DNA of 64,000 nucleotides, taken from the NCBI RefSeq assembly GCF_988242995.1, contig NZ_OZ547043.1; one strand, written 5' to 3'. Positions 10,341 to 12,892 of this stretch are shown one piece after another. Numbering within the stretch: position 1 is the first letter of the stretch; each line of letters opens with the position of its first letter. Below the pieces are notes generated by a model that was not told the DNA's origin, did not search any database, and saw only the letters and a program-made list of their open reading frames with translations. The position numbers were made by a program, and so were the translations under genes.

Positions 10341-10358
10341 GTGTATTATCGGTACAGA

Positions 10359-10388
10359 GCCCGGGCGAACCGGGCTTTGTTTTATTTC
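10359..10388 (+). terminator. Rho-independent terminator after phoH
   Basis: GCCCGG GCGAA CCGGGC hairpin followed by TTTGTTTTATTT. Confidence 0.7.
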
Positions 10389-10902
10389 ATTAACAGCAAA
10401 GACTTTCACTTCAGGTTAACGTTCAGGGGGGCGACTTTGAGCGTGTTGATAAGCTGAAATGAATTCTGGTTTAGATACTCTTACCAGGCATTTTTCGTCA
10501 TAGCACCCGACCAGTGTAATGCCGCCAGCGCGGAGAGTTTTTTGCCTATCTTTTTCCAGCCATTCAACCTGTACAGGAGGTCTGGTGCCAATTTTGCGTA
10601 TGAGGTTTAATCAGCAATGGGCCATAATTTGACTGACTGATTAACACCGAATATATTCTCCTGATTTTATTTTTTAGGGATAATATTAAAAATATAAGGT
10701 TAATCTTAATTAATTCTTCAGCTAATATTGTGTGTTGTTATTTTTTGTGGACGGCAAGCCGCAATGGCAAAATAGGTATGGTTGTAATAATCAAAACATG
10801 ATACTAACTATATATAGATCGTTGAATTGTTGGCATGTAACTCGCTACAGCGAGTAGCGTTAGTAATGAAATATAATCAACATGGATAGGTGAAGATTAA
10901 TT

Positions 10903-11589
10903 ATGAGCTTTATGGTTTTTGTAACTTGTTTGACAATTGCATTTGTCGCCGGTTTTGCTGTTGCCAGAAAATTGACACTCCGAAAAGTTGCCTCATCGGT
11001 AATCATCACTAGATCGCAACCAGTCCCTTCCTCTGCAACTTCCCCTGCGGCTAAGGCGTCGACAAGGAGCTATACACCGCAGAAAACCTATCGTGACTCT
11101 CGTTGGCAAGAACGAGATGAGTTGTTCCAGGGAATGGTTGCCGAAGGTATTTTATTGGAAGGAAAAGAGTGGTTAATTACGCGTTGTGAAAAAATTTATT
11201 TTGATAATCTGGAGAAATGGTTTGGACATTATTGTCATATCCATTGCCAGGTCTCTCTGGGGCGCTTGATCAACTTTCCAGAACAACCCGAGTTTAGCGA
11301 AGAAGAAAGAAAGCGTTTCTTTGCAATTTATAATGGAATGGCAATGGATTATGTTCTGGTTTCAAAGAAGAACAATAAAATAGTCTGTGTTATTGAGCTG
11401 GATGATCCGAGTCATGAAAGGGCAGATCGCATTATTCGTGACCGTTGGTTGAATACGATTATGACTATTGCACGGGTGCCTTTTGTACGAGCTTCTGTCA
11501 CTAAATTGGATGAAATCCCTCCGGTCTGGGATACCCGTGACAAAATTCGCCCATTAGCCGCGGCGACAAAGGGTGAACCGTTGCATTAA
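10903..11589 (+). CDS. Hypothetical membrane-anchored protein with C-terminal PD-(D/E)xK-like nuclease-type domain (resembles DUF2726 / NERD-like fold); orphan accessory gene
   Basis: 228 aa ORF; AGGTGA RBS about 10 nt before ATG; N-terminal hydrophobic helix (aa 4-24), S/T/P-rich linker, C-terminal block MDYVLV..VIELDDPSHERADRIIRDRWL..VPFVR; visibly AT-rich; not recognised as a K-12 gene. Confidence 0.65.
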   Translation: MSFMVFVTCLTIAFVAGFAVARKLTLRKVASSVIITRSQPVPSSATSPAAKASTRSYTPQKTYRDSRWQERDELFQGMVAEGILLEGKEWLITRCEKIYFDNLEKWFGHYCHIHCQVSLGRLINFPEQPEFSEEERKRFFAIYNGMAMDYVLVSKKNNKIVCVIELDDPSHERADRIIRDRWLNTIMTIARVPFVRASVTKLDEIPPVWDTRDKIRPLAAATKGEPLH

Positions 11590-11596
11590 CTAAGTA

Positions 11597-11674
11597 CCCC
11601 GGTCGGGGCTCCTCATCCCCCCGGTGTGTGCAATATACGAAAAAAAAGCCCGTACTTTCGTACGAGCTCTTCTT
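11597..11674. repeat. Copy 1 of a 78-bp module that equals the serX downstream terminator region
   Basis: Near-identical (3 differences) to 12489-12565, which sits directly 3' of intact serX; contains CCCCGGTCGGGG and CGTAC..GTACG hairpins and an A8/T8 run. Confidence 0.7.
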
Positions 11675-12385
11675 GTGCACAGAAAACCCCCAGCTAGGCT
11701 GGGGGTTCCGGAAAGCTTTCAGCTTTGAGCCAGTTATTAAAACCCCTTTTGATTTGTTAAAACACCTTGCGGTCTGGCAACTGCAAGTGTCAAACAAGAA
11801 ATCAAAAGGGGGTCCCAATGGGGGACGAAAAGAGCTTAGCGCACACCCGCTGGAACTGTAAATATCACATAGTTTTTGCGCCGAAATACCGAAGACTGGC
11901 GTTTTACGGAGAGAAGCGTAGGGCGATAGGCAGTATTTTGAGAAAGCTGTGTGAGTGGAAAAGCGTACGGATTCTGGAAGCAGAGTGCTGCGCAGATCAT
12001 ATCCATATGCTTGTGGAAATCCCACCCAAAATGAGCGTATCCGGCTTTATGGGATATCTGAAAGGGAAAAGCAGTCTGATGCTTTACGAGCAGTTTGGGG
12101 ATTTGAAATTCAAATACAGAAACAGGGAGTTCTGGTGCCGAGGGTACTATGTCGATACGGTGGGTAAGAACACGGCGAAGATACAGGACTACATAAAGCA
12201 CCAGCTTGAAGAGGATAAAATGGGAGAGCAGTTATCGATTCCCTATCCGGGCAGCCCGTTTACGGGCCGTAAGTAACGAAGTTGGATGCAAATGTCAGAT
12301 CGTGTGCGCCTGTTAGGGCGCGGCTGGTAACAGAGCCTTACAGGCGCATTTGAAAAACCTCCGGCTATGCCGGAGGATATTTATT
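11675..12385 (+). mobile_element. IS200-like insertion sequence (IS200/IS605 family), about 0.71 kb
   Basis: Single 152-aa HuH transposase; subterminal hairpins CCCCCAGC-TAG-GCTGGGGG (11687-11705) and CCTCCGGC-TAT-GCCGGAGG (12358-12376); no terminal inverted repeats; size as expected for IS200; exact ends approximate. Confidence 0.8.
11818..12276 (+). CDS. tnpA: IS200 transposase TnpA (Y1 HuH)
   Basis: 152 aa MGDEKSLAHTRWNCKYHIVFAPKYRR..HIHML..RGYYVDTVG; HuH motif and catalytic Tyr region; ORF track extends upstream to an in-frame start at 11767. Confidence 0.9.
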   Translation: MGDEKSLAHTRWNCKYHIVFAPKYRRLAFYGEKRRAIGSILRKLCEWKSVRILEAECCADHIHMLVEIPPKMSVSGFMGYLKGKSSLMLYEQFGDLKFKYRNREFWCRGYYVDTVGKNTAKIQDYIKHQLEEDKMGEQLSIPYPGSPFTGRK

Positions 12386-12391
12386 TAAATA

Positions 12392-12488
12392 TGGCGGTGA
12401 GGGGGGGATTGACTCGCTTCGCTCGCCCTGCGGGCAGCCCGCTCACTGCGTTCACGGTCTGTCCAACTGGCTGTCGCCAGTTGTCGAA
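12392..12488 (-). repeat. Degenerate copy of serX 3' end (19-bp exact direct repeat 12392-12410) plus 78 bp of unrelated sequence; att-like scar
   Basis: TGGCGGTGAGGGGGGGATT is identical to the 3' end of intact serX at 12572-12590; upstream part does not fold into a tRNA. Confidence 0.6.
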
Positions 12489-12565
12489 CCCCGGTCGGGG
12501 CTTCTCATCCCCCGGTGTGTGCAATATACGAAAAAAAAGCCCGTACCTTCGTACGAGCTCTTCTT
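12489..12565 (-). terminator. serX downstream hairpin/terminator region (copy 2 of the 78-bp module)
   Basis: On the serX sense strand the tRNA is followed by GCTCGTACGAAGGTACGGGC hairpin and T8. Confidence 0.65.
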
Positions 12566-12571
12566 TAAAGA

Positions 12572-12659
12572 TGGCGGTGAGGGGGGGATTCGAACCCCCG
12601 ATACGTTGCCGTATACACACTTTCCAGGCGTGCTCCTTCAGCCACTCGGACACCTCACC
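12572..12659 (-). tRNA. serX: tRNA-Ser (serX type)
   Basis: 88 nt, sense strand GGTGAGGTGTCCGAGTGGCTGAAGGAGCACGCCTGGAAAGTGTGTATACGGCAACGTATCGGGGGTTCGAATCCCCCCCTCACCGCCA; long variable arm typical of tRNA-Ser, encoded CCA. Confidence 0.9.
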
Positions 12660-12693
12660 AAATTGTTGTTCCTGTCTTGCTGGAACGGGCGCT

Positions 12694-12722
12694 AATTTAG
12701 GGAAATCATGACCTGAGGTCAA
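12694..12722 (-). promoter_or_regulatory. Putative sigma70 promoter of serX
   Basis: On minus strand TTGACC (12717-12722), 17-bp spacer, TAAATT (12694-12699), GC-rich discriminator, about 30 nt before the tRNA 5' end. Confidence 0.5.
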
Positions 12723-12892
12723 CAAACTTTTTTAAAAAATCGCGTGTTTATTCAAACTTCAATCAATATGCAGTTTTAATAAGCGAAATCTGCTTTTTTT
12801 GCCACCGACCACGGATTTGTTATGCTGGTGGCTTTTGTAGATCATAACGATAAGTGCGAATAAATTTCGCGCAACGCTTTTCGGGAGTCAGT

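Follow-up and report, generated by a model that had tools for sequence, protein, structure and literature searches.

The presence or absence of a pga block at the phoH-serX locus of E. coli is already known. According to the excerpts of Goldstone et al. 2016 (PMC4951805) used here, the pgaABCD-ycdT-insEF-ymdE-ycdU region is missing in 10–20% of phylogroup A and "appears to be a genome island", and the pga region is called unstable and prone to attrition. As for individual strains, excerpts of Cimdins et al. 2017 (PMC5635171) report a pga-less state between phoH and csgG in Tob1, Fec101, and B-8638. The 64,000-nt stretch of DNA analyzed here (hereafter, the window) matches this published state in its locus, its core flanks (efeB/phoH and ghrA/ycdXYZ), and the set of missing genes, and the pga-less frequency that we obtain, 19% of complete genomes, is of the same order. 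Both sets of excerpts describe the absence of the block and hold no mention of a DUF2726 gene in the pga-less allele, nor of an arrangement common to E. albertii and Salmonella. Compared with this literature, the locus opens no new question; the compact allele is known by the block it lacks.

Another group of described elements at this landmark is formed by the serX islands of EHEC O157:H7, which are associated with tellurite resistance and adherence (PMC3064760). These share the tRNA gene with our locus but are tens of kilobases long and have integrases. In the window, the ORF list contains no integrase gene between phoH and serX, the only enzymes there being the DUF2726 protein and the IS200 TnpA. 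The repeat search reports no direct repeats flanking the DUF2726 segment, and the phoH side has no copy of the tRNA 3' end. Thus, with neither an integrase nor attachment repeats, serX is unoccupied here.

The phoH stop codon (10340) and serX (12572–12659, minus strand) are separated by a gap of 2,231 bp, which holds one long ORF, one IS200, and repeated modules of the serX 3' end. The preliminary description had named an orphan ORF, an IS200-like element, and serX-3' modules within 2.2 kb, all of which are found where it placed them, and the K-12 gene order that it gave is also correct, as is the absence of the K-12 block from the window. The segment is AT-rich, as had been claimed: the GC content equals 40.6% at 10384–11595 and 31% in its core (10600–10900), versus 50.8% for the whole window. 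The alternative block of K-12, however, has 44.8%, so both alleles are AT-rich and composition does not separate them. The features of the locus are listed below.

9276..10340, plus strand: phoH, the left core flank (ORF list; named phoH in homologous loci)
10354..10383, plus strand: intrinsic terminator of phoH (terminator scan), the last bases common to K-12 and the left allele breakpoint
10384..10902, plus strand: AT-rich spacer (37% GC) that probably holds the promoter and other control elements of the DUF2726 gene
10903..11589, plus strand: DUF2726 gene, 228 aa, the sole long ORF of the interval (Pfam DUF2726, PF10881, E-value 2.8e-18, residues 90–205)
11596..11674, minus strand: distal portion of the RtT-type array, including a terminator hairpin; 98–99% identical to 12488–12565 and to K-12 units
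11675..12385, plus strand: IS200 (IS200C type), 711 bp (NF033573, STnc490, empty site, identical copies elsewhere)
11818..12276, plus strand: tnpA of IS200, a single Y1 (HUH) transposase
12386..12571, minus strand: proximal RtT-type unit (Rfam RtT at 12392–12529; serX terminator at approximately 12530–12571)
12572..12659, minus strand: serX, tRNA-Ser(GGA), intact (ARAGORN; Rfam tRNA, 53.8 bits)
12894..13831, plus strand: ghrA (ycdW), the right core flank (ORF list; named ghrA in homologous loci)

The PGAP-called form of phoH is shorter (262 aa, start at 9552). Within the spacer, the alignment of E. coli, E. albertii, and Salmonella reveals a motif, TGAAATATAAT, located about 30 nt before the ATG and kept as far as Salmonella. 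A 63-codon frame on the minus strand (10419–10607) was considered as a candidate C-terminal relic of a lost gene and rejected, being broken in E. albertii and in Escherichia sp. MOD1-EC7003; a search of 5.8 billion proteins matches it only to "hypothetical, partial" calls at the same E. coli locus.

In K-12 the gene order is phoH, pgaDCBA, dgcT (ycdT), IS3D, ymdE, ycdU, serX, and ghrA, with the block spanning 10.9 kb. The alignment with K-12, which includes phoH, has 96.6% identity through position 10383 and splits exactly at 10383/10384, just past the phoH terminator (window/K-12: GGGCTTTGTTTT; the sequences differ beyond). It rejoins at 11596–11620, within the RtT array. Compared with K-12, the window thus lacks pgaABCD, ycdT/dgcT, IS3, ymdE, and ycdU between phoH and serX, with the core flanks intact, and tblastn reports no homologues of pga, dgcT, ycdU, IS3, or ymdE anywhere in the 64 kb. 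Vice versa, no DUF2726 remnant is detected in K-12 at either the protein (tblastn) or the DNA level (blastn with word size 7).

Among 5,426 complete E. coli genomes, the DUF2726 segment is present in 1,043 (19%), while the phoH-pgaD junction is found in 4,381 and pgaC in 4,382. Genomes with the DUF2726 segment have no pga, so the two sets are mutually exclusive, and their counts sum to approximately the total. The compact allele is thus a widespread alternative, and, given the outgroups described below, probably an old one, with the block of K-12 as the derived island. The 3' end of the DUF2726 gene is contiguous with RtT/serX in 936 genomes. For genomes in which the match ends before serX (88% coverage), an island within serX was considered and rejected on 2009C_3689, the sole one inspected, which has a compact allele with one extra RtT unit. 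Regarding identity to the window, compact alleles reach at least 99% in 10 genomes, 95–99% in 350, and 90–95% in 691, and within E. coli they differ by up to about 6%. Strains of O26/O111 type are among their carriers, and the strain names of the matches suggest that the allele is spread over several E. coli lineages.

The order phoH-DUF2726-RtT-serX-ghrA is also observed in the E. albertii type strain and in Salmonella enterica. E. albertii NBRC 107761 is collinear with the window at 4981–11674 and 12381–18000 with 88–89% identity; it has the 228-aa orthologue, RtT, and serX, and its ORF has diverged about as much as the core genes on either side. In Salmonella enterica the order is putP-phoH-DUF2726-IS3-RtT-serX-ghrA-ycdXYZ-csgG, with a DUF2726 protein of 219 aa and about 72% identity. 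The phoH-DUF2726 arrangement is likewise present in Escherichia sp. MOD1-EC7003. A scan with exact 8-residue patterns, whose negatives are weak evidence, found no copy of the gene in the genomes representing E. fergusonii, E. marmotae, and E. ruysiae. Since E. albertii and Salmonella have the same order, the compact state appears to be the older one and the pga block derived, a polarity that rests on parsimony over three outgroup lineages. We therefore hold with considerable confidence that the phoH-serX interval is a pga-less allele of ancestral type, that the pga block of K-12 is derived, and that the IS200 of the window is recent. The DUF2726 gene, too, may have been acquired long ago.

The IS200 corresponds to the IS200 (IS200/IS605 family) of Salmonella and E. 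coli in its 711-bp size, single Y1 transposase, left-end hairpin, and structured 5' UTR, as well as in the lack of inverted terminal repeats and target duplication, with nothing essential different. Its transposase scores 144 bits against NCBIfam NF033573 (transpos_IS200, cut-off 55), and the left-end hairpin with the 5' UTR RNA (11685–11808) scores 146 bits against Rfam STnc490. The ends were set by the empty site together with comparison to other copies. According to the empty site in elppa4 (...GAGCTCTTCTT|TAAAGATGGCGG), the insertion is clean, lies between CTTCTT and TAAA, and has produced no target duplication. Unrelated loci hold copies with 100% identity to the element, each of them directly after a terminator T-tract, a placement observed at 5 of the 5 IS200 junctions examined. 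Two other genomes have an IS200 at this site, of a different variant. The copy in strain 2022H048 has 96.2% identity to that of the window, so that two IS200 variants stand at one nucleotide position in two diverged haplotypes, each directly after a terminator T-tract.

The serX-3' modules resemble the RtT RNA of the tyrT operon (RF00391), in which units of about 180 nt are likewise arrayed in tandem 3' of a tRNA gene, each closing on a repeat of the tRNA 3' end and followed by a terminator. In comparison with tyrT, the units of the window follow serX, number about 1.5, and are split by the IS200, and the unit scores 41.1 bits versus the gathering score of 45; the units aligned with it reach 46–50 bits in K-12, E. 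albertii, and Salmonella. PGAP labels the corresponding site in other strains "RtT sRNA". At its end, the proximal unit repeats the final ~19 nt of serX (12392–12410 repeats 12572–12590). A 57-nt terminator module occurs at 11618–11674 and 12509–12565 (98% identical), and a module of about 30 nt with the tRNA 3' end occurs at 12381–12410 and 12561–12590. The distal part (11596–11674) is severed from the remaining array by the IS200, and in the IS-free elppa4 it is contiguous with the sequence from 12386 onward. The repeats are RtT-type tandem units common to all alleles rather than attachment-site duplicates bracketing an insert.

As for the DUF2726 protein, it begins with an N-terminal transmembrane helix (residues 3–28), which a disordered linker joins to the DUF2726 domain at the C-terminus. 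DUF2726 is listed as a PD-(D/E)XK family (Steczkiewicz et al. 2012, PMC3424549), and the domain is predicted to adopt a Vsr-like PD-(D/E)XK fold, with a restriction-endonuclease-like alpha/beta core and conserved acidic catalytic residues. The Vsr/DUF559 branch of the superfamily has the same predicted fold of the core, and its conserved acidic and histidine positions (D...E-x-D-x(3)-H) likewise agree. The product is predicted to be a membrane-anchored, Vsr-like nuclease-fold protein, for which nuclease activity is presumed. Judging by its substitution rates (dN/dS of 0.146, or 0.15 when rounded, with dS of 0.41), the ORF is under purifying selection. No PADLOC defence model matches at E-values up to 0.1, NCBIfam gives no family match, the PDB sequence search reports nothing significant (best E-value 0.17), and the single PHROGs match is to a family of no assigned function. 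Conjugative elements carry distant homologues as cargo, beside TraG/TraU, and because of this our guess is that the inner membrane may be where the protein acts on DNA, in some conflict with mobile DNA. A bolder proposal is that the DUF2726 gene and the pga island are functional alternatives maintained by selection, and more than successive occupants of the site; the nuclease would then act at the membrane against incoming phage or plasmid DNA. We regard it as a long shot; if true, it would make the gene an uncharacterized single-gene barrier to phage and plasmid DNA that 81% of E. coli have given up for PNAG biofilm capacity.

Several other histories of the interval were weighed. The preliminary description had treated it as strain-specific content at the serX hotspot, which amounts to an AT-rich islet (the DUF2726 ORF and IS200) that integrated there and displaced the pga/ycdT block, leaving the serX-3' copies as attachment scars. 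The composition, the adjoining tRNA gene with copies of its 3' end, the conjugative cargo related to the ORF, and the documented use of serX as an integration site in other strains all agree with this. However, among the features expected of a tRNA-borne island, atypical composition is the one observed here, whereas an integrase, bracketing tRNA-3' repeats, and absence from relatives are not. The repeats, which had been taken for duplicates of the serX 3' end, fail to bracket the segment and are more numerous in K-12 (about 3.5 units) as well as present in E. albertii and Salmonella. The segment itself is syntenic in the latter two, with core-gene-level divergence in E. albertii, and belongs to 19% of E. 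coli genomes. Integration of an islet is therefore very unlikely; what stands of the earlier claim is a variable locus beside a tRNA gene, and its strain-specific content does not. Being the common state in most lineages, which had been named as grounds against that claim, does not strictly describe a 19% minority, yet the allele is not rare. Rarity applies to the exact 2.2-kb form with the IS200 (2 genomes) and not to the pga-less segment. That a K-12-like ancestor simply lost its pga-ycdU block by deletion would be in line with the described instability of the pga region (PMC4951805, in excerpt), but a deletion cannot create a 1.2-kb DUF2726 segment that is wholly missing from K-12-type genomes, and the two contents are mutually exclusive alternatives rather than nested ones, which makes such a deletion scarcely credible.

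The compact allele might also be ancestral in the genus and yet have been re-imported into this strain, by homologous recombination from a divergent E. coli or Escherichia lineage into a pga-bearing background with phoH and serX/ghrA as the arms. The identity classes of compact alleles given above fit such a history, as does the mosaic identity of the flanks to the nearest genomes (93–100% per 500 bp). On the right, the flank has 99.8% identity to strains including LCP30S3_I5, whose match covers RtT/serX only and not the end of DUF2726, and the left 6.3 kb are at most 96.9% identical to any complete genome. This ceiling on the left had raised the idea that the DNA comes from outside E. coli, which was dropped after a sliding comparison with VCSW7 yielded ordinary mosaic identity of 96–100%. 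No donor was found, however, and mosaicism is normal in E. coli. We consider re-import improbable though worth keeping in mind, and it would alter only the route of the allele into the strain, not the nature of the allele.

The interval of the window consists of a conserved DUF2726 gene preceded by an AT-rich, probable promoter region, towards which the serX transcription unit runs with its tail of RtT-type repeats, every unit of the tail being a terminator joined to a pseudo-tRNA 3' end. The preferred reading takes this for an allele of ancestral type. In about 81% of sequenced E. coli, K-12 included, the DUF2726 segment would have been precisely swapped for the ~11-kb pgaDCBA-dgcT-(IS3)-ymdE-ycdU island, with breakpoints at the phoH terminator and in the interior of the distal RtT unit. 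The window would retain the older state, and the sole recent strain-level event would be the insertion of one IS200 between the two RtT modules; the element lies directly 3' of a terminator hairpin and T-rich tract and interrupts no gene. Keeping the pga-less state, the strain should not make PNAG, the biofilm polysaccharide produced by the pga operon; this phenotype is predicted from gene content.

A small mechanistic point is that IS200 variants are repeatedly found directly after terminator T-tracts, here twice at one nucleotide. The broader consequence is that a bias towards the reference strain is corrected: at phoH-serX, K-12 does not represent the default state, and its pga/dgcT/ycdU block would be the acquired one. 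Approximately 1 in 5 sequenced E. coli have neither the PNAG operon nor the diguanylate cyclase DgcT, and have instead an unstudied gene for a predicted membrane-anchored nuclease-fold protein, which is of use for annotation and for the reading of biofilm phenotypes.

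phoH ends at 10340 in the window, and the interval from there to serX is laid out as follows:
10354-10383, strong terminator directly after phoH (terminator scan)
10903-11589, plus strand, ORF of 228 aa encoding a DUF2726 protein, the single ORF between phoH and serX
12572-12659, minus strand, tRNA-Ser(GGA) gene (serX), the sole tRNA found within the window

Besides the ORF, the interval contains an IS200 element and repeat modules, the 3′ end of serX among them, and the phoH stop and serX are 2231 bp apart. These are the contents listed in the preliminary description (one ORF, an IS200-like element, duplicated serX 3′ modules, and a gap of about 2.2 kb). 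Its remark that the segment is AT-rich holds as well, GC content being 40.6% in the window-specific 10384-11595 vs 50.8% for the window. According to the MG1655 record, the K-12 gene order in the preliminary description is also correct (phoH-pgaDCBA-dgcT-IS3D-ymdE-ycdU-serX-ghrA). BLAST homology to K-12 MG1655 ends at 10383 and restarts at 11596-11620; thus, 10.86 kb in K-12 occupies the place of 1.2 kb plus the IS in the window. A remnant of the DUF2726 gene was sought in K-12, and none is kept.

In a set of 5426 complete E. coli genomes, the DUF2726 segment occurs in 1043, the phoH-pgaD junction in 4381, and pgaC at any position in 4382. Since the DUF2726 and pga counts sum to the total, the two contents exclude each other, and genomes of the DUF2726 type lack the pga operon. 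The DUF2726 3′ end is joined directly to RtT/serX in at least 936 genomes; strain 2009C_3689, one sampled genome in which the match stops before serX, is likewise compact, with an extra RtT unit. Thus, the window arrangement minus the IS is a common minority allele of E. coli.

ISs have repeatedly inserted in the DUF2726 gene or the short DUF2726-RtT interval (locus L011, 6506-7764; hits H17, H29, H39, and H48); Salmonella, for example, carries an IS3-family element, and several E. coli genomes carry IS1 and IS3 elements. Over the DUF2726 segment, the complete genome most similar to the window is E. coli VCSW7 (99.3%); between its putP and efeU lies a further hypothetical gene of 447 aa (12743-14086 of its locus L013) that is missing from the window. 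As for the flanks, the most divergent part covers the 3′ end of efeB and the region between efeB and phoH (window 8500-9500), with 92.5-97% identity per 500 bp to K-12, VCSW7, and E. coli elppa4. The best identity of window 4000-10340 to any complete E. coli genome is at most 96.9%, and 99.8% matches to the right flank (13000-19000) exist among these genomes.

The interval had been described as an accessory segment at a tRNA hotspot, a view that synteny with E. albertii and Salmonella does not support. Collinearity between E. albertii and the window extends from efeU across the DUF2726 gene into the RtT array, and resumes from the array through serX to ghrA and beyond, in both cases at 88-89% identity. 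The E. albertii orthologue is 228 aa long (88% aa), an RtT unit and serX are present as well, and ORF identity to the window is ~90%, like that of flanking core genes. Salmonella enterica has a 219-aa orthologue after phoH (~72% aa) with the same N-terminal helix, and one S. enterica assembly reads putP-phoH-DUF2726-IS3-RtT-serX-ghrA-ycdX-ycdY-ycdZ-csgG. On a parsimonious reading, the compact phoH-DUF2726-RtT-serX allele is ancestral: it represents the old state, and the DUF2726 segment was displaced by the pga-dgcT-ymdE-ycdU block in the lineage(s) ancestral to most E. coli. The serX hotspot is unoccupied in the window. With dN/dS of 0.146 at dS of 0.41 between the window and E. albertii, the DUF2726 gene is maintained by selection.

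A scan of close relatives with one genome per species recovered the gene three times: in the type strain of E. albertii, in Escherichia sp. MOD1-EC7003, and on a contig that contaminates a Collinsella metagenome-assembled genome. This contig (L004, JAIJJM010000775.1, 1450 bp) is 96.7% identical to the window phoH-DUF2726 region and is almost certainly E. coli contamination. MOD1-EC7003 (L005 4232-4238, 6709-10944) keeps phoH-DUF2726 and lacks upstream efeUOB; downstream lies a molybdopterin oxidoreductase, 4Fe-4S, and membrane-subunit cluster, with no serX within 6 kb.

The parsimonious reading, in which the pga block replaced the DUF2726 segment, agrees with Goldstone et al. (PMC4951805) and Cimdins et al. 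(PMC5635171). The former describes the pga-ycdU region as an apparent genome island between efeB/phoH and ghrA/ycdXYZ, missing from 10-20% of phylogroup A, and the latter reports three strains in the pga/ycdT/IS-less state. The presence/absence polymorphism at the locus is already published.

As for the serX 3′ modules, the minus-strand order along serX transcription is tRNA, intrinsic terminator (hairpin and T8), a unit of ~140 nt whose end repeats the final ~19 nt of the tRNA, and a second copy of the terminator module. The window unit scores 41 bits against Rfam RtT (family threshold 45), and aligned units of K-12, E. albertii, and Salmonella reach 46-50 bits. Aligned units in other E. coli are labelled 'RtT sRNA' by PGAP (NCBI's genome annotation pipeline), and the K-12 array has ~3.5 units of 181 bp each. 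Judging by these aligned units and the K-12 array, the modules make up a tandem array of RtT type that all alleles share. The duplicated modules are therefore present as first described, but not as bracketing attachment sites, since RtT-type units recur in all alleles.

Spacer 10384-10902 is conserved within Escherichia, and close to the start codon conservation reaches Salmonella. It includes TGAAATATAAT (window 10870-10902), found ~30 nt 5′ of the DUF2726 start codon from E. coli through Salmonella. This sequence contains a perfect -10 hexamer in extended context and is a likely -10 element of a promoter; the rest of the AT-rich spacer evolves fast. A minus-strand frame in the spacer was rejected as a gene, its homologues coming only from the locus itself. 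Opposite the phoH 3′ end, window 10142-10335 (minus strand) matches Rfam Ysr251, a Yersinia antisense sRNA, at 193 bits. The match recurs in K-12, E. albertii, and Salmonella and probably reflects phoH coding-sequence conservation and not an independent RNA gene.

The IS is missing from strain elppa4, which otherwise carries the same allele. The empty site there is ...GAGCTCTTCTT|TAAAGATGGCGG..., the bar marking where the window has an extra 711 bp. All IS200 copies compared from other loci share the terminus ...GGAGGATATTTATT, which places the right end of the window copy at 12385. The transposase match scores 144 bits, and the left-end hairpin and 5′UTR RNA match Rfam STnc490 (146 bits); target duplication is absent, and no gene is interrupted. 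Only 2/5426 complete E. coli genomes have IS200 at the same position. Their copy is 96.2% identical to that of the window, whereas the window copy has 100% identity with IS200 copies at unrelated loci of other strains, and the same nucleotide is occupied by these two variants in two diverged haplotypes. The left end adjoins a terminator hairpin and T-rich run in 5/5 inspected junctions (window 11660-11690 and 12370-12400; L019, L020, and L021 around 1501 and 2206; L001 5334-6039). Given these identities and T-tract junctions, the shared position is best explained by target preference rather than common descent, which suggests strong IS200 targeting to terminator T-tracts. The sole strain-level novelty at the locus is a routine IS200 insertion.

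According to Pfam, DUF2726 covers residues 90-205 of the 228-aa protein. Steczkiewicz et al. (PMC3424549) include it among PD-(D/E)XK families, and Anantharaman et al. describe it as a restriction-endonuclease-fold DNase domain. The family shows no variation at E96, Q116, S118, E165, D168, H171, R176, R179, and D180 and little at D149 (kept in at least 90% of sequences), a pattern that fits Vsr/DUF559-like conservation. In the AlphaFold2 model (from 18 homologues), residues 3-28 form an N-terminal helix, followed by a disordered linker and an alpha/beta domain predicted with confidence; basic residues after the helix suggest that the domain faces the cytoplasm. Distant homologues were found at L015 5001-5612, L016 5001-5645, and L014 5001-5636. 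Homologues with 37-48% identity lie in conjugative elements (Dickeya, E. coli) beside TraG_N, TraU, integrase, and toxin-antitoxin genes, and an Erwinia homologue adjoins a T6SS vgrG/DUF2169/PAAR toxin cluster and SymE toxins. ICE-borne homologues of the membrane-anchored protein stand right after TraG_N, near integrase, MazE/PIN, RadC, and CbtA. PADLOC models searched with the DUF2726 protein gave no match. Our best guess, a tentative one, is that the protein may be a membrane-tethered nuclease with a part in conflict with mobile DNA.
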